Positions 1-63,067 of a stretch of 64,000 nucleotides of DNA are shown here, piece by piece. A model generated the notes under the pieces. It was not told the DNA's origin. It saw only the letters and a list, made by a program, of their open reading frames with translations, and searched no databases. This DNA comes from Escherichia coli (GTDB taxonomy: Bacteria; Pseudomonadota; Gammaproteobacteria; Enterobacterales; Enterobacteriaceae): assembly GCF_003019035.1 (NCBI RefSeq), contig NZ_CP027447.1; one strand, written 5' to 3'. The translations under genes were made by a program, and so were the position numbers. The first letter of the stretch is position 1. Every line of letters starts with the position of its first letter.

Positions 1-52
1 ACTGACGGTCAGCGATCCGTTCCTCGGTCAGTACCAACAACTGGTCCGCGAC

Positions 53-1951
53 GTGGTGATTCCTTATCAGTGGGATGCCTTGAACGATCGTATCCCAGAA
101 GCGGAACCCAGCCATGCGATTGAAAACTTTCGCATTGCCGCCGGACTTCAGGAGGGTGAATTTTACGGGATGGTGTTTCAGGACAGCGACGTCGCCAAAT
201 GGCTGGAAGCGGTAGCCTGGTCGCTGTGCCAGAAGCCGGACGCCGAACTGGAAAAAACCGCCGACGAGGTGATTGAACTGATCGCTTCCGCCCAGTGCGA
301 AGATGGCTATCTCAATACTTACTTTACGGTAAAAGCGCCCGAAGAACGCTGGAGCAATCTGGCGGAGTGCCATGAACTTTACTGCGCCGGTCATCTGATT
401 GAAGCCGGAGTCGCCTTCTTCCAGGCCACGGGCAAGCGGCGCTTGCTGGAAGTGGTTTGCCGTCTGACCGATCATATCGACAGCGTATTTGGTCCAGGTG
501 AAAGTAAGTTACACGGTTATCCTGGTCACCCGGAAATTGAACTGGCACTAATGCGCCTGTATGAAGTGACCGAAGAGCCGCGCTACCTGGCGCTGACGAA
601 CTATTTTGTCGAACAGCGTGGTGCGCAACCGCACTATTACGACCAGGAATATGAAAAGCGCGGGCAGACCTCGCACTGGCACACCTACGGCCCGGCGTGG
701 ATGGTGAAAGACAAAGCCTACAGCCAGGCACATTTGCCCATCGCACAGCAGCAAACCGCCATTGGTCACGCGGTACGTTTTGTCTACCTGATGACCGGCG
801 TCGCGCATCTCGCCCGTTTAAGTCACGATGAAAGCAAGCGTCAGGATTGCTTGCGGCTGTGGAACAATATGGCCCAGCGTCAGTTATATATTACCGGCGG
901 CATTGGCTCACAAAGCAGCGGCGAAGCGTTCAGCAGCGATTACGATCTGCCGAATGACACGGTTTACGCCGAAAGTTGTGCTTCCATCGGCCTGATGATG
1001 TTCGCCCGACGAATGCTGGAAATGGAAGGCGACAGTCAATATGCCGATGTGATGGAGCGCGCGCTGTACAACACTGTGCTCGGCGGCATGGCACTGGATG
1101 GCAAACATTTCTTCTATGTGAATCCGCTGGAAGTACATCCAAAATCGCTGAAATTCAACCATATCTACGATCACGTTAAGCCGATCCGCCAGCGTTGGTT
1201 TGGCTGCGCTTGTTGTCCGCCAAATATCGCCCGCGTACTGACCTCGATTGGTCATTATCTCTACACGCCGCGTGAAGATGCGTTGTATATCAACATATAC
1301 GCAGGAAACAGCATGGAAGTGCCGGTAGAAAATGGCACGTTGCGCCTGCGGGTTAGCGGGAACTATCCGTGGCAGGAACAGGTGACAATTGCGGTTGAAT
1401 CGCCCCAGCCGGTGCGTCATACGCTGGCTTTACGTCTGCCGGACTGGTGCACACAGCCGCAGATCATATTGAATGGGGAAGAGGTCGAGCAGGATATTCG
1501 TAAAGGGTATTTGCACATTACCCGCGAATGGCAGGAGGGCGACACGCTGAATCTAACTTTGCCAATGCCAGTACGTCGCGTTTACGGTAACCCGCTGGTG
1601 CGTCACGTCGCCGGAAAAGTGGCGATTCAGCGCGGCCCGCTGGTGTATTGCCTGGAACAGGCCGACAACGGCGAGTCACTGCATAACCTGTGGCTGCCCG
1701 CCGATGCGCCATTTACGACATTTGAAGGCAAGGGATTGTTCCGCCATAAGATCTTAATCCAGGCACCGGGTTACCGGTATGAACAGAGCAATCCAGAGCA
1801 GCAACCGCTGTGGCATTACGACAGTGCGCCAGCCAAACGCCAGCCGCAAACTCTGACGTTTATTCCGTGGTTTAGCTGGGCTAACCAGGGTGAAGGCGAA
1901 ATGCGGATCTGGGTGAATGAGGAAAAGCATTGCCATCCGGAGGTTGGATAA
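53..1951 (+). CDS. Glycoside hydrolase family 127-like (DUF1680, beta-L-arabinofuranosidase-type) protein; true N-terminus may lie upstream of the window
   Basis: 632-aa ORF; frame is open back to position 2 with no in-frame stop, and position 53 is a GTG, so the start is uncertain. Cys-rich segment FGCACCPPNIARV resembles the Cys-containing active-site region of GH127 enzymes. Family assignment is from memory. Confidence 0.65.
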   Translation: MVIPYQWDALNDRIPEAEPSHAIENFRIAAGLQEGEFYGMVFQDSDVAKWLEAVAWSLCQKPDAELEKTADEVIELIASAQCEDGYLNTYFTVKAPEERWSNLAECHELYCAGHLIEAGVAFFQATGKRRLLEVVCRLTDHIDSVFGPGESKLHGYPGHPEIELALMRLYEVTEEPRYLALTNYFVEQRGAQPHYYDQEYEKRGQTSHWHTYGPAWMVKDKAYSQAHLPIAQQQTAIGHAVRFVYLMTGVAHLARLSHDESKRQDCLRLWNNMAQRQLYITGGIGSQSSGEAFSSDYDLPNDTVYAESCASIGLMMFARRMLEMEGDSQYADVMERALYNTVLGGMALDGKHFFYVNPLEVHPKSLKFNHIYDHVKPIRQRWFGCACCPPNIARVLTSIGHYLYTPREDALYINIYAGNSMEVPVENGTLRLRVSGNYPWQEQVTIAVESPQPVRHTLALRLPDWCTQPQIILNGEEVEQDIRKGYLHITREWQEGDTLNLTLPMPVRRVYGNPLVRHVAGKVAIQRGPLVYCLEQADNGESLHNLWLPADAPFTTFEGKGLFRHKILIQAPGYRYEQSNPEQQPLWHYDSAPAKRQPQTLTFIPWFSWANQGEGEMRIWVNEEKHCHPEVG

Positions 1952-2062
1952 GGCGCTCGCGCCGCATCCAACGTAGGGAGCACATTGCCTGATGCGACGC
2001 TTAACGCGTCTTATCAGGCCCACGAGTCGGTGCAGTTGCCCGCTAACCATCGAAACGCGAGA

Positions 2063-2473
2063 TTAAACGCCCGGCAATACACGCCGGGCAGCTTCTGCCA
2101 GAAACGCACTTCTGTTGGCGTAGTCTGGGTTATTGCGCACGTAGGTATCAATCTTGTTCAGTAACCTTTTCGGCATCGTAATATTGATACGTTCAGCCCG
2201 ACCTTCGAACTGATTCATATTGATATCCACCAGCAACCATTGCCCGCCAATAAAGTCCTGCGCACGCTGGACCAGATGTGTTTCCACAGAGCCTGGAAGC
2301 GGCAACTCTTCATCCATCTCGCATAAGGTTTCGAAGTGCGCGACCAGTGCACTTCGCGCATCCTGGAAAGCGTTGTCCAGCGTATCACCAGCAAAATAAC
2401 AGCCTGGAACATCAGGGAAAAAACCGCTGGCGCTGCCGTCAGGATCACTGTGGATATAGGCGGGATAAAACAT
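2063..2473 (-). CDS. hicB: HicB-family antitoxin with C-terminal ribbon-helix-helix-like tail
   Basis: 136-aa ORF 16 bp downstream of hicA on the same strand; strong AGGAGG Shine-Dalgarno 5 nt before the ATG; C-terminal NRSAFLAEAARRVL resembles an RHH DNA-binding motif. Confidence 0.75.
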   Translation of the reverse strand: MFYPAYIHSDPDGSASGFFPDVPGCYFAGDTLDNAFQDARSALVAHFETLCEMDEELPLPGSVETHLVQRAQDFIGGQWLLVDINMNQFEGRAERINITMPKRLLNKIDTYVRNNPDYANRSAFLAEAARRVLPGV

Positions 2474-2489
2474 ATTGCCTCCTGAAATT

Positions 2490-2675
2490 TTAAAATGTTA
2501 AACCAGCCTGACGCCCAATTTGCGCCAGCGTACCGGGCTTAATATCTTTTTTAGGGTGCGGAACCGTCACCAGACCCGGATGAACAGGGTGGCGGAACTG
2601 ATGATGACTGCCACGGGTTCGAATATGTTCCCAGCCATGCTGCTTCAGGATGGCGATCACGTCTGCACTTTTCAC
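2490..2675 (-). CDS. hicA: HicA-family mRNA-interferase toxin
   Basis: 61-aa ORF with GTG start; MKSADVIAILKQHGWEHIRTRGSHHQF matches the HicA pattern (KxxELIKxLEKNGW...GSH with conserved His); toxin-first, antitoxin-second order typical of hicAB. Confidence 0.75.
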   Translation of the reverse strand: MKSADVIAILKQHGWEHIRTRGSHHQFRHPVHPGLVTVPHPKKDIKPGTLAQIGRQAGLTF

Positions 2676-2717
2676 ATCCCTGCCCTTCCATGATTATACA
2701 CACGATACACACAATTA

Positions 2718-2731
2718 GTGATAACAATCAC
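2718..2731. promoter_or_regulatory. Short palindrome GTGAT-AACA-ATCAC upstream of hicA (candidate HicB operator)
   Basis: 5-bp inverted arms about 43-56 nt upstream of the hicA start codon; position fits an autoregulatory operator, but the palindrome is short. Confidence 0.25.
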
Positions 2732-2950
2732 GATAGCGCGATTTATATGGGCCGTCAGGGGGATAAAGTTGACTCAGGAATGCCGCTCGGAAGAAGAATA
2801 ACGGTGTGCAGTAACTTGTTGAAAAGATGCGAGGAGACTCGTAATTAAGTTCAATCAATATTCAGTCATTCAAGACGTAGACATTTGAATTGGTAAAACG
2901 CGTAAGCGTCGCATCAGGCAATGAATACCCAATGCGACCAGCTTCTTATA

Positions 2951-4489
2951 TCAGAACAGCCCCAACGGTTTATCCGAGTAGCTCACCAGCAGGCACTTGG
3001 TTTGCTGGTAATGCTCAAGCATCATCTTATGGGTTTCGCGTCCGATGCCCGACTGTTTGTAGCCGCCAAACGCCGCATGTGCCGGGTAAGCGTGATAACA
3101 GTTGGTCCACACGCGCCCGGCCTGAATGCCGCGCCCCATCTTATAGGCCAGATTACCGTTGCGGCTCCAGACACCCGCGCCCAGGCCATATTGCGTGTCG
3201 TTCGCCAGCTCCAGCGCTTCTTCCATAGTTTTGAAGGTGGTCACCGCCAGCACCGGACCAAAAATTTCTTCCTGGAACACGCGCATATTATTCTGACCAA
3301 ACAGAATCGTCGGTTCGAGGTAGTAGCCGTCTTTCAGTTCGCCTTCCAGCAGCTTGCGCCGCCCGCCGGTGAGCACGTCTGCGCCCTCTTTTTTACCAAT
3401 ATCAATGTAGTTGAGGATGGTTTCCAATTGCCCGTGCGAAACCTGCGCCCCCATTTGCGTCACGCTGTCGAGCGGGTTACCGCTACGAATGCTTTCGACA
3501 CGGCGGATGGCGCGTTCCATAAAGCGTTCGTAGATAGACTCCTGCACTAAAGCACGGCTTGGACAGGTGCAAACTTCGCCCTGGTTAAAGGCAAACAGTG
3601 CAAAGCCTTCCAGCGCTTTATCGAAAAAGGCATCTTCTTCATCCATCACATCAGCAAAGAAGATATTTGGCGACTTGCCGCCCAGTTCCAGGGTTACCGG
3701 AATAATATTTTGCGTGGCGTACTGCATAATTTGTTGGCCCACTTCCGTTGATCCGGTAAACGCCACTTTGGCGATGCGTTTCGAGGTCGCCAGATATTCG
3801 CCAATTTCCCCACCAGCGCCGTTAACCACGTTCACCACGCCCGGCGGCAGTAAATCACCGACGATTTCCATTAGCAGCAGTACAGAAAGCGGGGTAAGAC
3901 GTGCGGGTTTCAGCACCACACAGTTGCCCGCCGCCAGCGCGGGAGCCATTTTCCAGCTCGCCATCAGCAGCGGGAAGTTCCACGGAATAATCTGCCCCAC
4001 CACGCCTAACGGTTCGTGGAAGTGATAAGCCACAGTTTCGCTATCCACTTCACTAATACCGCCTTCCTGTGCCCGGATACACGAGGCGAAATAGCGGAAA
4101 TGGTCAATCGCCAGCGGTACATCAGCAGCACTGGTTTCGCGAATGGGTTTGCCGTTATCCCAGGTTTCAGCCGTCGCTAACAGTTCAAGGTTTTGTTCCA
4201 TTCGATCGGCAATCTTAAACAGAATTGCCGCGCGATCCTGCACCGAGGTATGTGCCCATTTATCTTTCACTTTATGCGCGGCATCCAGCGCCAAATCGAT
4301 GTCTCGTTTGCCCGAAGACGCCACTTCGCACAGCAGCTGCCCGGTCACCGGCGTCAGGTTCTGGTAATACTCGCCGTCGGCAGGGGCTACCCACTCGCCG
4401 CCGATAAAGTTGTCATAACGGGCTTTTAACTTAAGAGGAAAACCATACTCGCCGGGCTTAATCTGTGCTGAAGGGGGATTATTGGTCAT
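2951..4489 (-). CDS. aldB: Aldehyde dehydrogenase B (NADP-dependent)
   Basis: Translation begins [34 protein letters not shown]... (512 aa), recognisable as AldB. The ORF-track start at 4579 is an upstream in-frame extension; ATG at 4489 confirmed in sequence. Confidence 0.93.
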
Positions 4490-4596
4490 GATCGTCTCCT
4501 TGCGGTGTGAGGTATAACAAGGGTAGACGTGACTGGCGAAATCTTCGCCAGTCGATAACAGCTTTACGACGGCTATCACGAATTTACGGGCAAGGG

Positions 4597-5892
4597 TTAC
4601 AGCGGATAATGCGCGAAGTACACGGCTTGCTGGTCATTAATTTTCTTCTCTTGCGCAAACCCTTCTTTAACAATTGTCCGTAAATCAGCTCGAGCCGTAT
4701 TATCAGAGACGCCCAGGCTCGCGCTAATTTCAGCAACTGTGTACTCTTTCCCCGGATTGGCGAGCATCACATTCAGGAGCGTTACCTGGCGCGGATTCAG
4801 GCGTTTAAGCACACCAGAGCTAAACAGCACACTATCGAGTTTTGCGCTTCGTTGTGTAATTTCATCGATATGCTGCTGCCAGTTTTGCAGAGCACGTTTA
4901 ATGACACCCGCCTGATATTCAAGGAAATAAGTCAGATCCATACCATCTGATTCAGTGTACTGGTAGCTGGCGGCATATTTGACCGGTGCAGCATGAAGCA
5001 AACGGCTGATGGAAATATATTTAAAGACATCGTAGCCCGATTTCAGCATATACCAGTAAAACAGCGCCCGACTGGTGCGCCCGTTGCCATCCCGAAACGG
5101 ATGTTCATGGGCCAGCATAAAATGCAGAATGCAGGCACGGACCAACGGATGAATATACCCTTCATGGCTGTTTAACCACTGGCAAACTTTTTCCAGCCGT
5201 TCCGGTAACAATGCCGCAGCGGGCGGTTGATGCACTATACTGCCATCATAGTCGGCGATCACAACATCATCTGTTTCACGAAATTCTCCCGGACGATATT
5301 TCGCGTCATTGATTCCACCCATACCAATGGCATGTAACTGGCGAATAAGCGCAGGTGTCAGCGGTTCTGCGAGTAAGTGCGGAATTTCCGCCATCAGCCG
5401 GGCATTTCCCGCAATCATATGCTCGTCTTCAGTGCGTGGCGACCGCCCTGTTTCCAGCATTTTTCTCGCCACCAGCGTTGTAGTATTCGCACCCTCCAGC
5501 TGGGAGCTGGTGATCGGCTCTTCCAGGCGTAACTGGCTTAACTCGGCTCCGGCCCCGCGTAACCGTTCAGTCTGATCTTTCAGCGCCAGCGCGGTAGCAC
5601 GTTTGTCGACAAGCTCGCACGCTTCTGCAATCACCGGGGTAATGTTGAATCCGGCCTGTTCACCCGCTTCATTGCAATAATTAATTCGTTGGATCGCCGC
5701 GTTGCGCGCCAGACGGGTAAGCGTCCACGCCACATCGACGTTTTCTCCTTTTTTGATGCGGTACTGCAACTCATCAAAAGGCAGATAACGTCCTTTTTCA
5801 TCGGTAACCCGGTTAAAGCGCAGGTGGGCCAGGAGTTCCTCACCCGATAAGTGTGATAAAGGAATAAGTCCGGGAGGTGATTTGATAGCCAT
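4597..5892 (-). CDS. Fic/Doc-family protein (putative AMP-transferase) with N-terminal inhibitory-helix motif and C-terminal winged-helix-like domain
   Basis: 431-aa ORF, ATG start. Fic motif [12 protein letters not shown] at residues 264-275 (nt 5068-5103); SSQLEG at residues 129-134 (nt 5491-5508) matches the (S/T)xxxE(G/N) auto-inhibition motif; C-terminal ~70 aa look like a wHTH. Confidence 0.85.
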
Positions 5893-10693: not shown

Positions 10694-11302
10694 TCAAGCC
10701 TTTGGCGGTTCGGTGCGAGCAAAACTTTCGCGGCTAAAGAGGTTTTCGACCAGTTTGACTAAGTGTGGGCGGTCGACACACCAGCCTGGCGCAACGCGGC
10801 GGAAATTGAGATATCCAACGGCACAGGCAATGGCGATAGTCGCCAGATTGACCGTATCGGTTTTGAGCGTGCCATCGACCAGATATCCTTCCAGCACATC
10901 CAGACTGCGGTTGATTTTCTCCCGCTGGCGTAACAATTCATCTTCAGACTGCTGCGCCGCCGGACGCGCCTGTTCACGCACCGATACCAGCCCGGCATCC
11001 ATAATGCCATCCGCCAGCGCCTCAATTTTGCGCACCCGCAACGACTCCAGCGGATCACGCGGCAACATCGCCGGAGCAACATTCATTAATTCAATATATT
11101 CGGCGATGATCGGCGAATCAAACCAGCATTCGCCCTCTTCGGTCACCAGCACCGGCACTTTTCCTAACGGGTTAAATTGCGCCACGCCGTTATCCGCGTT
11201 ATAGGGCAGTTCATTAATAAATTCGAAAGTTATGCCCTTTTCTAACAACAGAATAGAAAGTTTGCGTACAAACGGGCTGGTGTAGCTACCGACGAGTTTC
11301 AT
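10694..11302 (-). CDS. yibF: Glutathione S-transferase family protein
   Basis: 202-aa [31 protein letters not shown]...; GST N-terminal thioredoxin-like fold signature. Confidence 0.9.
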
Positions 11303-11530
11303 GCCGAGTCCTTTGTGCGAGGAAAAATATCAGTATGGCCTGGTGATGGGAAAAAGGGCAGAAAATGTTGATGGTTTGTTACTTCCCAATAAATCACATA
11401 TTTATCATGGTGATATAAATATTTTCCTAATTGTTCTTATCTGACAGATATCTCACTTAAGGCTTTCTTATAAATCTGTAGGGTTTCGCCTGTCAGCAGA
11501 CAAATAACCCGATAAAACAAGGATGAGCAG

Positions 11531-14500
11531 ATGAGCGGAAAACCGGCGGCGCGTCAGGGCGACATGACGCAGTATGGCGGTAGCATTGTTCAGGGTTCTG
11601 CCGGGGTGCGTATTGGTGCCCCCACCGGTGTGGCCTGTTCGGTGTGCCCCGGCGGGGTGACGTCCGGCCATCCGGTCAATCCGCTGCTGGGTGCAAAGGT
11701 CCTTCCCGGCGAAACCGACCTTGCCCTGCCCGCCCCGCTGCCGTTCATTCTCTCCCGCACCTACAGCAGTTACCGGACAAAAACGCCCGCGCCGGTGGGG
11801 AGCCTCGGCCCCGGCTGGAAAATGCCTGCGGATATCCGCTTACAGCTGCGCGATAACACTCTGATACTCAGTGATAACGGCGGCAGAAGCCTGTATTTTG
11901 AGCACCTGTTTCCCGGTGAGGACGGTTACAGCCGCAGCGAGTCACTCTGGCTGGTGCGCGGCGGCGTGGCGAAACTGGATGAAGGTCACCGGCTGGCCGC
12001 ACTCTGGCAGGCGCTGCCGGAAGAGCTTCGCCTGAGTCCGCATCGTTATCTGGCGACGAACAGTCCACAGGGGCCGTGGTGGGTACTCGGCTGGTGTGAG
12101 CGGGTGCCGGAGGCGGAGAAGGCCACTTCCGGCGGGACGGAACCGTCCGCTTTTCCTGATACCCTGCCGGGTTACACCGAATATGGCCGGGACAACGGCA
12201 TCCGTCTGTCTGCCGTGTGGCTGACGCACGACCCGGAATACCCGGAGAATTTACCTGCCGCGCCGCTGGTGCGCTATGGCTGGACGCCACGCGGCGAACT
12301 GGCGGTGGTGTATGACCGCAGCAATACACAGGTGCGCAGCTTTACTTACGATGATAAATACCGGGGCCGGATGGTGGCGCACCGCCGCGCGGGCCGGCCG
12401 GAAATCCGTTACCGTTACGACAGCGACGGGCGGGTGACAGAACAGCTAAACCCGGCAGGCTTAAGCTACACGTATCAGTATGAGAAAGACCGCATCACCA
12501 TCACCGACAGCCTGGACCGCCGTGAAGTGCTGCACACGCAGGGCGAAGGCGGGCTGAAGCGGGTGGTGAAAAAGGAACACGCGGACGGCAGCGTCACGCA
12601 GAGTCAGTTTGACGCGGTGGGCAGGCTTAAGGCACAGACGGATGCCGCAGGCCGGACGACTGAGTACAGCCCGGATGTGGTGACGGGACTCATCACGCGC
12701 ATCACCACGCCGGATGGCAGGGCATCGGCGTTTTACTATAACCACCACAACCAGTTAACGTCAGCCACCTGGCCTGACGGGCTGGAAATACGCCGGGAAT
12801 ATGATGAATCCGGCCGTCTGATTCAGGAAACCGCACACAACGGCGATATCACCCGCTACCGTTATGATAATCCACACAGTGACTTCCCCTGCGCAACGGA
12901 CGATGCCACCGGCAGCCGGAAAACCATGACGTGGAGCCGTTACGGTCAGTTGCTGACCGTCACTGACTGTTCCGGTTATGTAACCCGTTATGACCATGAC
13001 CGCTTCGGGCAGATGACGGCGGTGCACCGCGAGGAAGGCCTGAGCCAGTACCGCGCATACGACAGCCGTGGACAGTTAATTGCGGTGAAAGACACGCAGG
13101 GCCATGAAACGCGGTATGAATACAACGCCGCCGGTGACCTGACCGCCGTCATTGCCCCGGACGGCAGCAGAAACGGGACACAGTACGATGCGTGGGGAAA
13201 GGCCGTCCGTACCACGCAGGGCGGGCTGACCCGCAGTATGGAATACGATGCTGCAGGACGGGTCATCCGCCTGACAAACGAAAATGGCAGCCACACCACC
13301 TTCCGTTACGATGTACTCGACCGGCTGATACAGGAAACCGGCTTTGACGGCCGCGCACAGCGTTATCACCACGACCTGACCGGCAAACTTATCCGCAGCG
13401 AGGATGAGGGGCTGGTCACCCACTGGCACTATGACGAAGCAGACCGCCTCACGCAGCGCACCGTGAATGGCGAAACCGCAGAGCGGTGGCAGTATGACGA
13501 ACGCGGCTGGCTGACAGGCATCAGCCATCTCAGCGAAGGGCACCGGGTGACGGTGCATTACAGGTATGATGAGAAAGGCCGCCTGACCGGTGAGCGCCAG
13601 ACGGTGCATCACCCGCAGACGGAAGCACTGCTCTGGCAGCATGAAACCAGACATGCGTACAACGCGCAGGGGCTGGCGAACCGCTGTATACCGGACAGCC
13701 TGCCCGCCGTGGAATGGCTGACTTATGGCAGTGGTTACCTGGCAGGGATGAAGCTGGGTGACTCGCCCCTGGTGGAGTACACCCGCGACCGCCTGCACCG
13801 GGAAACGCTGCGCAGCTTCGGCCGTTATGAACTCACCACCGCTTATACCCCTGCCGGGCAGTTACAGAGCCAGCACCTGAACAGCCTGCAGTATGACCGC
13901 GATTACACCTGGAACGACAACGGCGAACTCATTCGCATCAGCAGCCCGCGCCAGACCCGGAGTTACAGCTACAGCGACTCCGGCAGGCTGACCGGCGTTC
14001 ACACCACCGCAGCGAACCTGGATATCCGCATCCCGTATGCCACGGACCCGGCAGGTAACCGCCTGCCCGACCCGGAGCTGCACCCGGACAGCACCCTCAG
14101 CATGTGGCCGGATAACCGTATCGCCCGTGACGCGCACTATCTTTACCGGTATGACCGTCACGGCAGGCTGACGGAGAAAACCGACCTCATCCCGGAAGGG
14201 GTTATCCGCACGGATGATGAGCGGACTCACCGGTACCATTACGACAGCCGGCACCGGCTGGTGCACTACACGCGGACACAATATGCAGAGCCGCTGGTCG
14301 AAAGTCGCTATCTTTACGACCCGCTGGGCCGCAGGGTGGCAAAACGGGTATGGCGACGTGAACGGGACCTGACGGGCTGGATGTCGCTGTCACGGAAACC
14401 GGAAGTGACCTGGTACGGCTGGGACGGCGACCGGCTGACCACGATACAGAACGACAGAACCCGCATCCAGACGATTTATCAGCCGGGGAGCTTCACGCCA

Positions 14501-15571
14501 CTCATCAGGGTCGAAACCGCCACCGGTGAGCTGGCGAAAACGCAGCGCCGCAGCCTGGCGGATGCGCTTCAGCAGTCCGGCGGCGAAGACGGTGGTGATG
14601 TGGTGTTCCCGCCGGTGCTGGTGCAGATGCTCGACCGGCTGGAAAGTGAAATCCTGGCTGACCGGGTGAGTGAGGAAAGCCGCCGCTGGCTGGCATCGTG
14701 CGACCTGACGGTGGCGCAGATGCAAAACCAGATGGAACCGGTGTACACGCCGGCGCGAAAAATTCACCTGTACCACTGCGACCATCGCGGCCTGCCGCTG
14801 GCGCTTGTCAGCACGGAAGGGGCAACAGCGTGGTACGCAGAATACGATGAATGGGGCAACCTGCTGAATGAAGAGAACCCGCACCAGCTGCAGCAGCTCA
14901 TCCGCCTGCCGGGTCAGCAGTATGATGAGGAGTCCGGCCTGTATTACAACCGCCACCGCTATTATGACCCGCTGCAGGGGCGGTATATCACTCAGGATCC
15001 GATTGGGCTGAAGGGGGGATGGAACCTGTATGGATATCAATTGAATCCGATATCAGACATCGACCCCCTGGGTTTATCTATGTGGGAGGATGCAAAATCG
15101 GGGGCATGTACTAATGGTCTTTGCGGCACACTATCCGCTATGATAGGTCCAGATAAGTTTGATTCTATAGATAGCACCGCATATGACGCCTTAAATAAAA
15201 TAAATAGCCAATCTATTTGCGAAGATAAAGAGTTCGCTGGTTTAATATGTAAGGATAATAGTGGCAGATATTTCTCAACAGCACCTAACCGAGGGGAAAG
15301 AAAAGGATCATATCCATTCAATAGCCCTTGCCCTAATGGTACTGAGAAAGTATCAGCTTATCATACTCATGGTGCAGATAGTCATGGAGAATATTGGGAC
15401 GAAATATTTTCAGGCAAAGATGAGAAAATAGTTAAAAGTAAAGATAACAATATCAAGTCATTTTATTTGGGCACGCCCAGTGGTAATTTTAAAGCAATAG
15501 ATAACCACGGGAAGGAAATAACAAACGGAAAAGGATTACCTAATGTCTGCAGAGTTCATGGTAATATGTAA
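11531..15571 (+). CDS. rhsA: Rhs-family polymorphic toxin (PAAR-like N-terminus, YD-repeat core, variable C-terminal toxin tip)
   Basis: 1346-aa ORF; N-terminal [17 protein letters not shown]...; many YD/RYxYD repeats; core ends at DPxGL (DPLGL, nt 15062-15076) followed by an AT-rich ~164-aa C-terminal domain with several Cys; located between yibF and yibA. Confidence 0.9.
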
Positions 15572-15926
15572 AAAAATATTGTTTAGGAACTGTGTCATTG
15601 TATCTTTGTTTGTTTTTACATACAACACATGGGCGCAGTGTAATAATAATATTAAAATAATGCGCAAGTATGAAAGTGAGGGTAAATATACCGTTAGAAA
15701 TTTGGTTAAAAATAAAGCTATAGCATTGGAATTAGCTGAGATATATGTTAAGAATCGTTATGGGCAGGATGCCGCAGAAGAAGAAAAACCATATAAAATC
15801 ACTGAGTTAACAACAAGTTGGGTTGTTGAAGGCACCATTCACTCAGACCAAATTGCTGGTGGGGTTTTTATTATAGAAATAGGCAAAAATGATGGGGGAA
15901 TTCTGAATTTTGGCCACGGAAAATAA
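15543..15926 (+). CDS. Candidate Rhs immunity protein (hypothetical)
   Basis: 127-aa ORF overlapping the last 29 nt of the rhs gene; AAGGA Shine-Dalgarno about 7 nt before the ATG; hydrophobic N-terminus; AT-rich like the toxin tip. Assigned by position only. Confidence 0.45.
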
Positions 15927-16030
15927 GTATGTAAGGATAATCAAACATCGTGTGCGCTGATGGCAGAGTAGGTGGAGGACTCCAGACAGTCAAACGATAA
16001 AAAAAGATAGCCTTTATGGAGGTTCCTGCA

Positions 16031-16873
16031 ATGTCAAATACATACCAGAAAAGAAAGGCAAGTAAAGAGTATGGTTTATATAATCAATGTAAGAAACTAA
16101 ATGATGATGAATTATTTCGCTTACTTGATGATCACAATTCCTTGAAAAGGATTTCATCTGCCAGAGTATTACAGTTAAGAGGTGGGCAAGACGCTGTTAG
16201 ATTGGTAATTGAGTTCTGCTCTGATAAAAATTATATCCGTAGAGATATCGGAGCATTTATACTCGGGCAAATAAAAATTTTCAAAAAATGCGAAGATAAT
16301 GTGTTTAATATTTTGAACAATATGGCATTGAATGATAAGAGCGCTTGCGTTCGAGCTACGGCAATCGAGTCAACGGCTCAGCGATGCAAGAAAAACCCAA
16401 TTTATTCACCTAAAATAGTAGAACAATCTCAAATTACTGCTTTTGATAAATCGACTAATGTCAGACGTGCTACAGCATTTGCTATTTCTGTTATCAATGA
16501 TAAAGCAACAATTCCACTATTGATTAATCTGTTAAAAGATCCAAATGGAGATGTCAGAAACTGGGCCGCATTTGCAATAAATATCAATAAATATGATAAT
16601 AGTGATATTAGGGATTGTTTTGTGGAGATGCTTCAGGATAAAAATGAGGAAGTCCGTATTGAAGCAATAATCGGACTTTCCTACAGAAAAGATAAAAGGG
16701 TTTTATCTGTTTTATGCGATGAGTTAAAAAAAAATACTGTTTATGATGATATCATTGAAGCTGCGGGTGAATTAGGTGATAAAACGCTACTTCCTGTTTT
16801 AGATACTATGTTGTACAAGTTTGATGACAATGAAATTATAACTTCCGCTATTGATAAGCTGAAGCGTTCATAG
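16031..16873 (+). CDS. yibA: HEAT/armadillo-like repeat protein
   Basis: 280-aa product from ATG 16031 (MSNTYQKRKASKEYGLYNQ...), GGAGG Shine-Dalgarno 8 nt upstream; ORF-track start 16016 is 5 codons further up. Matches my recollection of E. coli YibA. Confidence 0.8.
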   Translation: MSNTYQKRKASKEYGLYNQCKKLNDDELFRLLDDHNSLKRISSARVLQLRGGQDAVRLVIEFCSDKNYIRRDIGAFILGQIKIFKKCEDNVFNILNNMALNDKSACVRATAIESTAQRCKKNPIYSPKIVEQSQITAFDKSTNVRRATAFAISVINDKATIPLLINLLKDPNGDVRNWAAFAININKYDNSDIRDCFVEMLQDKNEEVRIEAIIGLSYRKDKRVLSVLCDELKKNTVYDDIIEAAGELGDKTLLPVLDTMLYKFDDNEIITSAIDKLKRS

Positions 16874-16920
16874 CGTGAGTTGCCTATGCACAGTGGGGTA
16901 TTCCCGCCGGCACGGTGCAG

Positions 16921-17040
16921 ATGCTCGATCGGCTGGAAAGTGAAATCCTGGCTGACCGGGTGAGTGAGGAAAGCCGCCGCTGGCTGGCATCGTGCGGCCT
17001 GACGGTGGCGCAGATGAAAAAACAGATGGAACCGGTGTAC
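16921..17040 (+). pseudogene. 5' portion of an orphan rhs core-end ORF, separated from its 3' part by an ISAs1-family insertion
   Basis: nt ~16901-17040 nearly duplicate rhsA nt ~14618-14746 (encoding [40 protein letters not shown]); reading frame runs into the IS left end and stops there. Confidence 0.7.
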
Positions 17041-18331
17041 CAGGGAAAGATCACGTAACGCTGCTTTTTTGTACTAAACAATTCGCATTTTATGTTTAAA
17101 AATTGAGATATTCCTCATTACCTGAAGCTGTTTTTTATTGCTTATACATGATCAAATACTCCTTACATAATTAAGGAGAACAAAATGGTACTTAAAAAAT
17201 TGATGGAACATATTTCTATTATCCCCGATTACAGACAAGCCTGGAAAGTGGAACATAAATTATCGGATATTCTACTGTTGACTATTTGCGCCGTTATTTC
17301 GGGTGCAGAAGGTTGGGAAGATATAGAGGATTTTGGGGAAACACATCTCGATTTTTTGAAGCAATATGGTGATTTTGAAAATGGTATTCCTGTTCACGAT
17401 ACCATTGCCAGAGTTGTATCCTGTATCAGTCCTGCAAAATTTCACGAGTGCTTTATTAACTGGATGCGTGACTGCCATTCTTCAGATGATAAAGGCGTCA
17501 TTGCAATTGATGGAAAAACGCTCCGGCACTCTTATGACAAGAGTCGCCGCAGGGGAGCGATTCATGTCATTAGTGCGTTCTCAACAATGCACAGTCTGGT
17601 CATCGGACAGATCAAGACGGATGAGAAATCCAATGAGATTACAGCTATCCCGGAACTTCTTAACATGCTGGATATTAAAGGAAAAATCATCACAACTGAT
17701 GCGATGGGTTGCCAGAAAGATATTGCAGAGAAGATACAAAAACAGGGAGGTGATTATTTATTCGCTGTAAAAGGAAACCAGGGGCGGCTAAATAAAGCCT
17801 TCGAGGAAAAATTTCCGCTGAAAGAATTAAATAATCCAGAGCATGACAGTTACGCAATTAGTGAAAAGAGTCACGGCAGAGAAGAAATCCGTCTTCACAT
17901 TGTCTGCGATGTCCCTGATGAACTTATTGATTTCACGTTTGAATGGAAAGGTCTGAAGAAATTATGCGTGGCAGTCTCCTTTCGGTCAATAATAGCAGAA
18001 CAAAAGAAAGAGCCCGAAATGACGGTCAGATATTATATCAGTTCTGCTGATTTAACCGCAGAGAAGTTCGCCACAGCAATCCGAAACCACTGGCACGTGG
18101 AGAATAAGCTGCACTGGCGTCTGGACGTGGTAATGAATGAAGACGACTGCAAAATAAGAAGAGGAAATGCAGCAGAATTATTTTCAGGGATACGGCACAT
18201 CGCTATTAATATTTTGACGAATGATAAGGTATTCAAGGCAGGGTTAAGACGTAAGATGCGAAAAGCAGCCATGGACAGAAAGTATCTGGCGTCAGTCCTT
18301 GCGGGGAGCGGGCTTTCGTAATCTTTCCCTG
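17041..18331 (+). mobile_element. ISAs1-family insertion sequence (H-repeat element), apparently intact
   Basis: Imperfect terminal inverted repeats CAGGGAAAGATCACG... (left) and ...CGTAATCTTTCCCTG (right; first 11 nt identical); flanked by 9-bp direct repeat CCGGTGTAC (17032-17040 and 18333-18341); carries a full-length transposase ORF. Confidence 0.85.
17185..18321 (+). CDS. ISAs1-family transposase (H-repeat-associated protein)
   Basis: 378-aa [54 protein letters not shown]..., recognisable as the H-repeat (YhhI/YdcC-type) transposase found in E. coli Rhs elements. Confidence 0.9.
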
Positions 18332-18335
18332 CCCG

Positions 18336-19109
18336 GTGTACACGCCGGCGCGAAAAATCCACCTGTACCACTGCGACCATCGCGGCCTGCCGCTGGTGCT
18401 TATCAGCACGGAAGGGGCAACAGCGTGGTACGCAGAATATGATGAATGGGGCAACCTGCTGAATGAAGAGAACCCGCACCAGCTGCAGCAGCTCATCCGC
18501 CTGCCGGGTCAGCAGTATGATGAGGAGTCCGGCCTGTATTACAACCGCCACCGCTATTATGACCCGCTGCAGGGGCGGTATATCACTCAGGATCCAATTG
18601 GGCTGAAGGGGGGATGGAATTTTTATCAGTATCCGTTGAATCCGATAACTGATATTGACCCGTTGGGATTAGCGACCTGTTTATACAGCATAACTTTAGG
18701 TATGCTTTCATGCGTTTCAGATACGCCAAGTGATGATAATTCTTATGGTGTGCTTACTATTTCAGTCGCCTCTGATAATAATGGTAATAATATGCAATGT
18801 AAAAATAATCCTGGTTGTACACACTTACAAAATAGAGGCCCAATACCTCAAGGGGTATGGAGCTGGAATGTTAATGGTCCTGGAGCAACCAATAGAAAAC
18901 CTAATGGTATACGTTTAGTACCGTCAGCAAATACAGAAACGTATAATCGTGATGGATTTTTAACACATAGTTGTTTAAACGCTTTTGGTCCATCTTTAGG
19001 ACCTCGATTCTGTTCCGAGGGTTGTATAACTGGTTCATCTAATGACATGCAAAAATTAAATGAGCTAATATTTTCAGAGCCAGATAGCACATTAACAGTG
19101 ACGGACTAG
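18336..19109 (+). CDS. Orphan Rhs C-terminal fragment: core end plus a distinct toxin tip (3' part of the disrupted orphan)
   Basis: 257-aa ORF, GTG first codon; N-terminal 105 aa nearly identical to the rhsA core end (…[19 protein letters not shown]…[10 protein letters not shown]…), DPLGL at 18657-18671, then an unrelated AT-rich tip ([17 protein letters not shown]...). Confidence 0.8.
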
Positions 19110-19113
19110 AAAT

Positions 19114-19635
19114 ATGGCAAGGTTATTAACAATTGTGCTTTTTTTCTCTATTTCTGCGAATGCAGTTACTGTAAACCAATTTCAGAGAGAGTTGGATTTG
19201 GCAGACAAGGCAATATTATGGGCACTAATATCAGCCAGTACCCAAGAGGGACGAAAAGCGTGTTCACTTAGCTATTTTTCATGTAAAGCCGCAGAGGCTG
19301 AACTCGGACTGGCATATATGGCTGCTAATGATAACAAGGCATTTCTCACATCCTTATCTAGAATAATGATGTACAAAATAGATGCTGGACTTTCCGAATC
19401 CTATACATGCTATTTATTAAGCAAGGGAAAGATCATAAGACCATATCTGAAGAATCTAAATCCACACCAACTTGTCGCTGATTGCATTGAAACTGTAAAT
19501 AAAATAAAAGATAAAAATAAAAAAATCATTGATATAGATTCAGTTAATATTTGCAATGATAATAAAAATATAAATTGGAGAGTTAATAGTACTATTGTAG
19601 CCATTGATGATTCTATAAAATGCATCGATGAATAA
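19114..19635 (+). CDS. Candidate immunity protein for the orphan Rhs toxin tip (hypothetical)
   Basis: 173-aa ORF starting 5 nt after the orphan stop; very AT-rich; signal-peptide-like N-terminus MARLLTIVLFFSISANA. Assigned by position only. Confidence 0.45.
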   Translation: MARLLTIVLFFSISANAVTVNQFQRELDLADKAILWALISASTQEGRKACSLSYFSCKAAEAELGLAYMAANDNKAFLTSLSRIMMYKIDAGLSESYTCYLLSKGKIIRPYLKNLNPHQLVADCIETVNKIKDKNKKIIDIDSVNICNDNKNINWRVNSTIVAIDDSIKCIDE

Positions 19636-19796
19636 TAACTTAATTATATTTAAAAATATATTAATAACTCACTCTCCAGGAGTTTTTTTAACTTAGTGTT
19701 ATAATGAATACGATAATTAAAAGTGAAGAGAAAAATAGTTGTATACATATATTCCATGAACCTACATTGTGATCTATAAATTATATATTTTTAAAT

Positions 19797-20081
19797 GTGA
19801 CTGTCATCCTTCAGATAATAAAGCCATCATCGCAATAGATGGAAAAGCACTCCTGCTCTTTTTTGATTAGAGCCGTGGCAGAGGAACAACTCATATCATC
19901 ATTGCGATCTCGACAATGTATAGTCTGATCCTTCGGCAGATCAAGACGGATAAAAATCCAATGAGTTCACACTCATCCCGAACTTCTTAACATAATGGAT
20001 ATTAACGAAAAATCATCACAGCCGATGAAATAATATGCAAAAATAATTAGTCCTTGCAGGGAGCAAAGTTCCATAATCTCC
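19797..20081 (+). pseudogene. Degenerate, internally deleted ISAs1-family (H-repeat) remnant
   Basis: nt 19797-~20027 align with indels to the central part of the intact transposase gene (e.g. TCATCCTTCAGATAATAAAGCCATCATCGCAATAGATGGAAAAG versus CCATTCTTCAGATGATAAAGGCGTCATTGCAATTGATGGAAAAACG); ~20045-20081 resemble the IS right end; no intact ORF. Confidence 0.6.
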
Positions 20082-20091
20082 CCCGCCCCCC

Positions 20092-21228
20092 TCAATGATC
20101 CAAATAAAGATAATGCATCCAGCTGGTCATTCTTAGCAGCACTTTCCGCATCACCGAAACATGGCTGAAATGGTCGGAGTAAACTGCCACCTGGGCGTAG
20201 ATGCCGTCGGGTAAAGCATCGATATCATCGTTAGGGTCCAGTTCAATGGTTCCCAGCACACCGTCCGTGCCGGGCACGACCGTTAATGATTGCAATACCC
20301 CTTGCGCCTGATACGAACCGCCTGGCACGACAGGTAAAATACTAGTCAGTTTGCCGTGGAACACCTGCCCAGGTAGCGCGTTAAACACCACTTCCGCATC
20401 ATCGCCGGGTTTCAGACGTAACAGCGAGTTCTGCCGAAATTGGGCGACAATTTGCCGTTTTTGCTCGGGGATGAAAACCATCACCGGACGTAGCGGCAAG
20501 GCAGCTGCGTATGTACCTGGGCGGATCAGTACCTGAGTGACGTAGCCATTGCTCGGTGCGCGAATGACAGTCTGCTCAAGGTTATATTTTGCTTCAGTAA
20601 GTTGCGCTCTTAAGCTCACAATCTGCGACTGCTCGCCGTTAACCATACTGTCGAGCTGGCTCTGGATCTGCGCCTGCTCCGCCACCGAGCCTTTCACCAG
20701 CGCGTCCTGCGCGAGGAAGTTTTGCCGCGCATCGTCGATGTCACGTTCCGAGAACGGATTCACTGCCGCCTGGCTGCCTATCAGGTAACGTTGATAATTT
20801 TTAAACAGACGGTCGCGCTCCGCTGAAACCTGGGTGGTGTTGGCCTGCGCTTCAGTGAGCTGCGCGCGCAGCGTCTTTATATTATGCGTCGCCGTCATCA
20901 GGTCAGCCTGAAGTCTGTCAACTCGCGCCTGGTAACGAACCGGGTCGAGCTTAAAAAGCACCTCGCCCTTCTGAATAAGCTGATTATTTTTGTCGGTGAC
21001 TTCAGTAACAATTCCCGTCACCTGTGGCGTGATGGGGATCGCTATCACTGCCTTTTGCGCGGTAAAAGTGTAAGGGTGGTTGTAGTTCATCAACAAAATC
21101 AAACCACTCACCAGAAACACGCCTCCCAGCGCCGCCGTCGCCAGCGTCCACTGATTTACCGGAATGCGGAAGATTTTAAAGACCGCCCACGCCAGCGCCA
21201 CGTAAGTTAAAACAATCAATAGATCCAT
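20092..21228 (-). CDS. yibH: HlyD-family membrane-fusion / secretion protein
   Basis: 378-aa ORF with N-terminal transmembrane helix and long coiled-coil region ([29 protein letters not shown]...); ATG confirmed at 21226-21228. Confidence 0.85.
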
Positions 21229-21230
21229 AT

Positions 21231-21593
21231 TTAGATCTCCGGGAACGTGGAATAGTCAGTCTTTTTCTCGGCGGCGAGTTGATGCTCCAGCCGGGAAATT
21301 CGGTCAGAAAGTGCGGCGATTTCCGGGTCAGTCGCTTTCTCCTGCGACGCAACATGTGACTGCATGCCCCAGCCGCGCTCCGGTTGGTAGAGCGTCGCCC
21401 AAATCCACAGGAACGGCCAAATTACATGGAGGGTAAAAAGGCTCACCCAGCCCGCAGTATGGATCGCATCGGCATGGGGATGATTACGCTTTTTGGCAAT
21501 CAGATAAGGGATGTCATGTATCGCGATGATTCCATAAAAAATCACCAGAAAGACGAAGATCAGCACTCCCAACGCGAAGTAGTTTAGAAACAT
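21231..21593 (-). CDS. yibI: Small inner-membrane protein (DUF3302-like)
   Basis: 120-aa product from ATG 21593 ([24 protein letters not shown]...), GAGG Shine-Dalgarno upstream; ORF-track start at 21695 is an upstream extension; 3 bp from the yibH start. Confidence 0.8.
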
Positions 21594-21808
21594 ATCTGCC
21601 TCGGATTCACGTTTATCAGTGTTGTTTTTGGCTGGCAGCCAGATGGGAGTCGGGCTGATATTTTGACAATAATCCGGGTTGGCGATTCTCGCCATAACAC
21701 CGAAGAATAATTTTTAGAGGTGATGAGTTGCTTAGTTACATAACGATTTTATGACGAAGGCATAACATGCTGCAGATCACATCAGGTGAACGCCGTAAGA
21801 AAATATCT

Positions 21809-62710: not shown

Positions 62711-62722
62711 CACGCTACCGCC
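62711..62722 (-). promoter_or_regulatory. ops element (RfaH recruitment site) within the JUMPStart sequence in the waaQ 5' leader
   Basis: Plus strand reads CACGCTACCGCC, i.e. GGCGGTAGCGTG on the transcribed (minus) strand; lies 85-95 nt upstream of the waaQ start. Confidence 0.85.
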
Positions 62723-63067
62723 CCAGGCTCAACAGCTACCCGAATACTGATAACGCACTTACTTTGACGCGCTAGTGTATCATTTCTTTCGCAGCAATCC
62801 GACCCGAATGATTTTTATACACAAAATATGATTTAATTATAAAAATCATATAGATAAAATTTTGTATACAGAGAATCCAGATATTGTCTATGTAAAGTTG
62901 CAATCCTGGCTGAAATTCAATGAATCGCATAAAAATACAAAAAAATGAAGATCTAGCAGCAGATCAGCTCAAACAGAGACTATTTAAGTCAAAAACGGGA
63001 AAAGTAATGGTAAAGCCACAGCTAAATACATAGAATCCCCAGCACATCCATAAGTCAGCTATTTACT

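Follow-up and report, generated by a model that had tools for sequence, protein, structure and literature searches.

The yibI-yibH operon of Escherichia coli pairs a predicted EmrA-class periplasmic adaptor with a small DUF3302 membrane protein

The yibI-yibH genes, located on the minus strand of a 64,000-nucleotide stretch of the Escherichia coli contig NZ_CP027447.1 (RefSeq assembly GCF_003019035.1; the whole stretch is hereafter referred to as the window), form an annotated, uncharacterized, core and vertically inherited two-gene operon. The first gene encodes YibI, a small membrane protein of the DUF3302 family, and the second encodes YibH which, according to its sequence and its structural model, is a periplasmic adaptor (membrane fusion protein, TC 8.A.1) of the EmrA/AaeA/MdtN class. 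The new observation reported here is that, wherever the available sequence extends far enough, a DUF3302 gene is followed by a gene for a YibH-type adaptor, and that no conserved transporter gene adjoins the pair in about 28 independent contexts. YibI would be an inner-membrane partner dedicated to an adaptor that docks on TolC, with which it would build a joint envelope conduit, a reading based on sequences and models to which we give about an even chance. In the literature searched, no functional study was found for either yibIH or the paralogous pair yiaWV, and the two pairs are among the last uncharacterized membrane fusion proteins of E. coli, a part of the so-called y-ome. If the pairing and the link with outer-membrane channels described below have the meaning that they suggest, tripartite conduits could be built without any RND, ABC, MFS or PET transporter, which would add to the known clients of TolC and to the conceivable routes of efflux.

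The operon and its two proteins

The operon comprises the following features:

21231-21593, minus strand: yibI, 120 aa, ATG at 21593, Pfam PF11742 match (2.7e-41)
20092-21228, minus strand: yibH, open reading frame of 378 aa, annotated yibH in RefSeq, with Pfam and NCBIfam matches
21229-21245, minus strand: yibI-yibH junction as read from the sequence, a 2-nt gap with the yibH Shine-Dalgarno in the yibI 3' end

The region 19600-22200 of the window was compared with strain SCU-301 and with 5426 complete E. coli genomes. It shares 99.9% identity with the SCU-301 E. coli chromosome, in which yibH is annotated as 'HlyD family secretion protein' and yibI as 'DUF3302 domain-containing protein', and the yibIH pair occurs in 5406 of the 5426 genomes. 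The stop codon of yibI (21231-21233) is separated by 2 nt from the ATG of yibH (21226-21228), and a GGAG sequence located 8 nt upstream of this ATG lies within the 3' end of yibI. Since the genes are only 2 nt apart and the ribosome-binding site of yibH is inside yibI, their co-transcription is very likely, and the sequence of the junction indicates translational coupling as well. The start of the divergent mtlA gene, at 22129 on the other strand, is separated from yibI by a spacer of 535 bp. The open reading frame that contains yibI extends over 21231-21695 (minus strand) and offers an upstream start that would give a 154-aa protein; this start was ruled out, because, in the 120-aa form, residue 3 is already the first to be covered by the DUF3302 profile, and because the orthologues measure 118-123 aa. 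A GAGG Shine-Dalgarno sequence occurs 5 nt upstream of the retained ATG. With respect to the known anti-phage defence systems collected in PADLOC, a marginal coiled-coil match to PbeC (E 0.0076) was the only result obtained for yibIH.

A first-pass annotation of the window, made from the letters and their open reading frames, had described a 378-aa protein of the membrane-fusion type and a 120-aa polytopic membrane protein, encoded by genes co-transcribed divergently from mtlA, with no partner transporter or outer-membrane channel in the window. The Pfam, NCBIfam, fold and reading-frame data agree with this description, as do the 2-nt gap and the opposite strands, and the annotated part of the window is free of RND, ABC, EmrB-type MFS or FUSC partners and of TolC-family genes. 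YibI is readily recognized as a membrane protein, but the term polytopic is loose for a protein with only two predicted membrane helices.

YibH is matched in Pfam by CusB_dom_1, HlyD_D23, HlyD_3 and Biotin_lipoyl_2, and its best NCBIfam matches are EmrA/EmrK, MdtN and AaeA. Compared with the respective equivalog cutoffs, its scores amount to 57 vs. 563 bits for EmrA, 110 vs. 376 for MdtN and 75 vs. 400 for AaeA, and the sole NCBIfam cutoff exceeded is that of the generic RND_mfp subfamily (100.3 vs. 94.9). The AlphaFold2 (AF2) model, built from a 34-sequence alignment with a predicted local distance difference test (pLDDT) value of 82, contains helices 2-19, 26-50, 97-152, 161-218 and 355-375 and is organized in two N-terminal membrane helices, a lipoyl domain, an α-hairpin, a β-barrel and a C-terminal helix. 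The α-hairpin is made of 56 + 58 residues (97-152 and 161-218), and the β-barrel includes a loop of low confidence (303-320). The lipoyl (barrel-sandwich) domain is split by the α-hairpin and followed by the β-barrel, which is the arrangement proper to the adaptor fold, and the N-terminal inner-membrane anchor, with its two predicted helices, represents a variant of the single helix of EmrA. Using Foldseek, the top structural matches were the E. coli EmrA chains of EmrAB-TolC (8zal/8zar; E 1.6e-21, TM-score of about 0.6, 20% identity), followed by MacA and AcrA, and EmrA is also the closest solved protein by sequence in the PDB (E 1.8e-11).

The conservation of YibH is unevenly distributed along this scaffold. 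When compared with seven distant partners, the membrane hairpin (residues 1-53) displays 53% identity and the C-terminal helix 43%, the lipoyl and barrel parts 31-41%, and the α-hairpin just 14%. The invariant residues cluster accordingly in the membrane hairpin (F17, N25, W27, L34, G36, M47 and P52) and in the C-terminal helix (R361, L364, R366, M367 and W370). Since the membrane anchors of ordinary adaptors are poorly conserved, the conserved hairpin and C-terminal helix argue for a specific intramembrane partner, and the sequence data point to the always-adjacent YibI as the obvious candidate. The possibility that the N-terminal hairpin of YibH is a fused AaeX-like module was also considered and discarded, no Pfam DUF1656 match being obtained at E values up to 10 and the hhalign probability reaching 0.6%.

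YibI scores 140 bits against DUF3302 (PF11742; cutoff 32) and covers positions 1-76 of the 77 positions of the profile, in a family that comprises roughly 8000 proteins and 819 clusters at 50% identity. Its AF2 model (pLDDT 87) consists of helices 2-26, 28-35, 41-68 and 90-113, of which 2-26 and 41-68 are the two predicted membrane helices and 90-113 a C-terminal helix. The membrane helices are joined by a strongly conserved, His-rich loop (HDIPY..KKRNHPHxDAIH), and the conservation of the whole family peaks in this loop (HDIPY..RNHPHxDAIH) and in the second helix; the invariant residues P29, P39, A43, S51, W59, P60 and W65 of YibI all belong to the inter-helix loop and helix 2. The charge distribution, together with relatives possessing an extra N-terminal helix, suggests an N-out, loop-in, C-out topology; for YibH, a periplasmic N-terminus is predicted. 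Among solved structures, YibI has no relative either by sequence, the best match being a spurious rhodopsin helix (E 0.012), or by fold, the best match being PorL/GldL (E 3). DUF3302 was also examined as a possible divergent form of DUF1656 (AaeX/YdhI) and rejected, with hhalign probabilities of 0.1-0.6%, and no informative domain fusion of DUF3302 was seen among the matches listed.

Gene pairing and gene neighbourhoods

The neighbourhoods were compared in 73 Enterobacterales species loci containing 76 pairs, taken from the best 80 loci of a scan of a genome collection, all of which belong to the Enterobacterales, and, at greater depth, in contexts obtained by looking up 11 proteins individually, several of which gave contigs so short that they were uninformative. 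In the 73 species loci, a homologue of YibH or YiaV directly follows every DUF3302 gene. The same order of a DUF3302 gene and an adaptor gene occurs with DUF3302 relatives sharing 45-50% identity in metagenomes and metagenome-assembled genomes (MAGs), the two genes being separated by -1 to 12 nt. A cognate transporter gene adjoining the pair is absent from the window, from the 73 Enterobacterales loci and from the distant loci, in which the operons contain no RND, ABC, MFS or FUSC gene. The 51 neighbour proteins collected from 19 non-syntenic contexts include no transporter family more than twice (MFS, LysE and lactate permease once or twice), and the families that do recur are those of the LysR regulators (5) and of DUF3313 (4).

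A distant clade, to which a Reichenbachiella MAG of the Bacteroidota (L089) belongs, has the pair in a three-gene operon together with a gene for an outer-membrane efflux protein (OEP) of the TolC family (PF02321). Depending on the locus, the order is OEP-DUF3302-adaptor (L081, L087, L088 and L089) or DUF3302-adaptor-OEP (L090), with gaps of 2-14 nt. Judging from the sequences of this modest sample of distant loci, DUF3302 and a YibH-type adaptor together resemble a tripartite efflux system of a variant kind, in which the transporter is missing.

Other genes were noticed around the pairs. At L090, a classical FUSC-OEP-DUF1656-adaptor (AaeA-like) cluster (1-4851) is located 3 kb upstream of the DUF3302-adaptor-OEP operon, both layouts thus occurring in one genome. 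In three genera, a DUF3313 gene coding for about 222 aa precedes the pair by 41-140 bp in the same orientation, and in a fourth it stands beside the pair on the opposite strand (L063:9193-9858, L069:9254-9919, L075:9289-9957 and L050:11626-12291); in certain lineages, its product could represent a third component. A gene for a DUF4136 protein is found upstream of the pair at L078. Genes related to aldehyde or electrophile handling also recur close to the pairs, namely the GST-like yibF downstream in Enterobacteriaceae, aldB beside yiaWV (L003), an aldehyde dehydrogenase gene adjoining the Buttiauxella pairs (L045-L051) and a glyoxalase-family gene downstream of the adaptor gene in two distant loci (a JGI contig and L086:3292-3801), to which a gene of the Na+/H+-exchanger family following the OEP gene at L090 (9716-10933) may be added; the numbers are small and this recurrence could be due to chance.

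The operon has a true paralogue in the yiaW-yiaV pair of K-12 (YiaV, TC 8.A.1.1.4, uncharacterized), which adjoins aldB as stated in the first-pass annotation; the identities amount to 77% between YibH and YiaV and 75% between YibI and YiaW, with equal lengths and the same gene order. Both are induced at the entry into stationary phase. They differ in that yiaW-yiaV occupies its own locus beside aldB, yiaU and yiaT, is reported to be bound by H-NS in vitro, has no upstream CRP sites and is absent from the strain type of the window. It had been proposed that GH127 and hicAB genes replace the paralogous pair in the window, and this holds: the near-identical strain SCU-301 has AraC, MFS, GH127 and hicBA genes in place of yiaT-yiaU-yiaV-yiaW, so that the replacement applies to the strain type of the window. 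In the window itself, the GH127 gene and the hicB/hicA toxin-antitoxin pair (1-2700) stand in place of the K-12 yiaT-yiaU-yiaV-yiaW genes, the MFS and AraC genes of the replacement being located upstream of the window start.

Proposed function and competing explanations

Among characterized systems, EmrAB-TolC offers the closest structural counterpart: the EmrA hexamer docks tip-to-tip on TolC and encloses a single EmrB monomer (PMC13139468). Like YibH, EmrA displays a membrane anchor, a lipoyl domain, a long α-hairpin, a β-barrel with a long membrane-facing loop and a C-terminal helix, in the same order, and is devoid of a membrane-proximal domain. It differs by its low identity (about 20%) and its one N-terminal membrane helix instead of two; moreover, yibH has no adjacent emrB-like gene and is preceded instead by a DUF3302 gene. 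The genetic organization recalls AaeX-AaeA-AaeB and YdhI-YdhJ-YdhK of the PET/ArAE type, in which the gene for a small two-helix membrane protein stands right before that of an EmrA-class adaptor and a LysR regulator is often close by, as near the DUF3302 pairs. However, a FUSC/ArAE transporter gene occurs in these systems and not in the yibIH operon, and their small protein, like that of MdtNOP, is a DUF1656 protein to which the DUF3302 protein YibI is not detectably related (hhalign 0.1-0.6%). The hexameric, TolC-docking adaptors MacA and AcrA share the lipoyl, hairpin and β-barrel core of YibH but possess a membrane-proximal domain, shorter hairpins and an always adjacent transporter gene, and match YibH less closely in structure (E 1e-17 to 1e-11, TM-score of about 0.4).

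On the reading preferred here, the yibIH operon would be self-contained and would specify one half of an envelope conduit that docks on TolC in the manner of EmrA, namely the half situated in the inner membrane and the periplasm. YibH would serve as the periplasmic adaptor, anchored by its N-terminal two-helix hairpin, and its α-hairpin, with about 56 residues per helix, would be long enough to meet TolC tip-to-tip in the way EmrA does. YibI would act as an obligatory inner-membrane partner, probably by binding the conserved membrane hairpin and C-terminal helix of YibH, and would take the place of the AaeX/YdhI-type small subunits of PET pumps, possibly even that of the transporter itself. 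The resulting complex would most likely export a small endogenous or stress-related compound, through a conduit that would be switched on at glucose exhaustion and in urine. Published data taken in its favour are the rise of yibH at glucose exhaustion and the urine induction of yibI promoter fragments, both described below, a competitive index of 0.33 in urine for a yibI deletion (PMC5404293), and the envelope-type phenotypes of yiaW and of Klebsiella yibH.

A number of points weigh against this proposal. YibH is not an orthologue of EmrA, MdtN or AaeA, its scores being far under the equivalog cutoffs. The canonical motif by which hairpin tips contact TolC is RxxxLxxxxxxS ('RLS'); at the hairpin tip of YibH, R147, G151, S152 and V156 are found in at least 90% of the sequences, with a spacing unlike that of the motif. 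The clade with linked OEP genes consists of about six loci from related metagenomic lineages only, and its adaptors have hairpins about 60 residues shorter than those of YibH. Cells tolerate a deletion of yibH so well that the locus serves for neutral integration (PMC5852967). Proteins with two helices are not known as transporters, and there is no sign of a module for energy coupling. Finally, the contacts of YibH with YibI and with TolC are predictions, as are the physical assembly of the three proteins, the export activity, its substrate and its energy source.

The main rival to the dedicated-partner proposal would make YibH and YibI an adaptor and its accessory subunit for a canonical transporter encoded elsewhere (MFS, PET/FUSC or ABC), and thus the orphan half of a tripartite pump in which YibI would play a modulatory role similar to that of AaeX/YdhI or AcrZ. 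Every characterized adaptor with the fold of YibH works with a transporter, EmrA requires EmrB, around one monomer of which its hexamer is built (PMC13139468), and the small DUF1656 proteins are cofit in pumps combining a membrane fusion protein and a FUSC transporter (Price et al. preprint). TolC itself, which is unlinked in E. coli, illustrates that unlinked partners are normal in this species and, by analogy, an unlinked transporter may exist; in addition, the complete FUSC-OEP-DUF1656-adaptor cluster of L090 lies 3 kb from a DUF3302 operon. To our knowledge, though, adaptor and transporter genes are adjacent in all characterized E. coli systems, so that an unlinked dedicated transporter would be unusual. 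The transporter gene is moreover missing in about 28 independent contexts ranging from Enterobacterales to the Bacteroidota MAG, even though several of these contexts have the channel gene within the operon, and DUF3302 is not homologous to DUF1656 (hhalign below 1%). On balance, this rival appears unlikely, while deserving serious attention. The opposite extreme, in which a DUF3302 protein, a YibH-type adaptor and TolC (or the operonic TolC-family channel) constitute a complete export machine without any canonical transporter, is still harder to credit and is regarded as improbable. In such a machine, the at least 12 membrane hairpins of a YibH hexamer and its YibI partners would form the inner-membrane unit, and the conserved His/Asp loop of YibI together with the His of helix 2 would provide gating or proton coupling. 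If so, the inner-membrane components of tripartite systems would include an additional, new class.

A weaker rival than the unlinked transporter assumes that yibIH is not an exporter at all but an envelope-spanning tether, gate or sensor which affects outer-membrane or TolC properties such as permeability or receptor availability. The phenotypes reported so far are of the envelope type rather than of the efflux type: the deletion of yiaW raises the Ca2+ transformation efficiency, as cited in PMC12844161, that of yibH in Klebsiella lowers plaque formation by evolved phages (PMC11796411), and that of yibI lowers the adhesion of UTI89 (PMC5404293). These phenotypes are indirect, however, and come from single studies with no follow-up. 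The lack of an energy module and the DUF3313 lipoprotein genes adjoining some pairs would also fit a tether, whereas the complete EmrA-like channel-forming architecture kept by YibH, including the conserved hairpin tip, and the operon linkage specifically with a TolC-family channel would not. An envelope role of this kind is accordingly judged quite improbable.

The mtlA spacer, the rhs island and further features of the window

The sequences flanking the operon contain the following features, the sites for the cAMP receptor protein (CRP) resulting from a consensus scan of the 64-kb window with up to 1 mismatch:

21594-22128, unstranded: yibI/mtlA divergent spacer, containing the mtlA control region and the unmapped yibIH promoter
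21809-21824, unstranded: CRP site 1, TGTGATTCAGATCACA, consensus, centre 223.5 bp upstream of the yibI ATG
21853-21868, unstranded: CRP site 2, TGTGACATTACTCACA, consensus, centre 267.5 bp away from the ATG of yibI and 268.5 bp away from that of mtlA
21926-21941, unstranded: CRP site 3, TGTGATGCACATCACG, 9/10 consensus positions
21970-21985, unstranded: CRP site 4, TGTGATTCATATCACA, consensus, centre 151.5 bp upstream of the mtlA ATG
20052-20068, minus strand: weak terminator-like hairpin, 24-40 nt past the yibH stop codon in rhs-island sequence, from a consensus scan only
11340-20091, unstranded: rhs/IS island between yibF and yibH, outside the yibIH system, with ends set by comparison with the rhs-less UTI89

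These four CRP sites, which are the well-known mtlA sites, are the only matches in the window, and all occur in 21809-21985, i.e., 216-392 bp upstream of the yibI ATG. The presence of an mtl CRP-site cluster upstream of yibIH, noticed in the first-pass annotation, is thus correct. That the operon might be catabolite-controlled through it is no more than tentative: yibH is co-induced with mtlA at glucose exhaustion, but the sites follow mtlA and no canonical promoter geometry links them to yibI. At least two CRP sites are present in all 37 mtlA-linked loci, whereas any site at all is found in just 1 of 38 unlinked loci, a set that includes Kluyvera, which keeps yibI-yibH-yibF and lacks mtl; the cluster therefore tracks mtlA and belongs to it rather than to the yibIH pair. 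No promoter for yibI was found in the spacer sequence at a canonical CRP class I or class II distance, the geometry being provisional. As a candidate, a class II promoter combining the half-site TGTGATCTGCAGCATG with a TAAAAT -10 element was rejected, a hand-worked spacing being 7 nt too short.

Published data bear on this regulation in several ways. Among the clones recovered with CRP by systematic evolution of ligands by exponential enrichment (SELEX), the yibI/mtlA spacer ranked second in abundance, with 38 clones (PMC3105977), and the same spacer contains a SELEX site of the RpoD holoenzyme that was attributed to yibIH and mtlADR (PMC3946193); the promoter 'TATACA-18-TATAAT' listed for yibIH in the latter study could not be located in the spacer of the window. 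Upon glucose exhaustion in O157:H7, yibH, mtlA, yiaW and aldB rise jointly, with log2 values of 3.78, 2.84, 2.75 and 3.02, respectively (PMC2241611). Promoter-trap fragments of UTI89 extending from -329 to +151 showed a 5.6-fold induction in urine, and a second trapped fragment (-144 to +90) carries no CRP site (PMC5404293); mapped via UTI89, the former corresponds to positions 21442-21922 of the window and includes CRP sites 1 and 2. Together with the four strong sites, the SELEX recovery, the joint rise and the urine-induced fragment speak for an activation of yibIH by cAMP-CRP bound at the shared mtlA sites. The distribution of the sites among the loci without mtlA, the lack of a sigma-70 promoter with class I or class II spacing relative to any of the sites and the second trapped fragment speak against it. 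Moreover, the 545-bp upstream region of yiaW contains no CRP site and yiaW is nevertheless co-induced, so that an RpoS-dependent or stationary-phase control explains the co-induction equally well. Control by CRP is accordingly retained as a tentative idea, somewhat on the doubtful side.

On its other side, yibH directly abuts an rhs/IS region, as pointed out in the first-pass annotation. From the similarity to UTI89, this variable island ends exactly at the yibH stop codon and, at the opposite end, 37 bp upstream of the yibF ATG. The adjacency, which is also found in K-12, and the precise end of the island had suggested that yibIH is tied to the toxin locus, for example in the export or delivery of the rhs toxin/immunity module. 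The co-occurrence counts effectively refute such a tie: yibIH is present in 5406 of the 5426 E. coli genomes and the rhs-side junction in only 3691, about 1700 genomes (about a third) matching the yibH part alone without the junction. In UTI89, yibF is located 70 bp past yibH, and it also directly follows yibH in two other Escherichia genomes. The order common to the 73 Enterobacterales species loci, mtlR-mtlD-mtlA <> yibI-yibH-yibF-selA-selB, is the ancestral enterobacterial one and has no rhs, and an rhs-like open reading frame lies within 9 kb of just 2 of the 76 pairs. In addition, the rhs genes stand on the strand opposite to yibIH, and the paralogous pair yiaWV has no rhs neighbour. The adjacency is that of an incidental insertion hot spot with no functional link, and a role of yibIH in the Rhs module is hardly conceivable. 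In the rhs-less strains, where yibF follows yibH after 70 bp in the same orientation, the two genes could share a transcript; in the window, yibF is found at 10694-11302.

The island itself contains an intact gene for a 1346-aa Rhs core (11531-15571) and an intact ISAs1 transposase gene (17185-18321), both of which are frameshifted in the near-identical SCU-301, as well as yibA (16016-16873), an orphan Rhs C-terminal fragment (18336-19109) and an Imm57 immunity gene (19114-19635). Elsewhere in the window, a gene for a Fic-family protein of 431 aa (4597-5892) occupies the interval between aldB and yiaY, which measures just 165 bp in K-12, and a DUF3251 protein gene (27297-27980) followed by the gene for a 1648-aa YadA-like trimeric autotransporter adhesin (28024-32970) is located between yibL and lldP. 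With respect to RNA elements, no Rfam family occurs in or near the yibIH locus, and the only two matches of the window are naRNA4, of the repetitive extragenic palindromic (REP) type, at 1942-2020 just past the GH127 gene, and a JUMPstart element at 62711-62749 (minus strand, 53 bits), upstream of the block of waa genes that closes the window.

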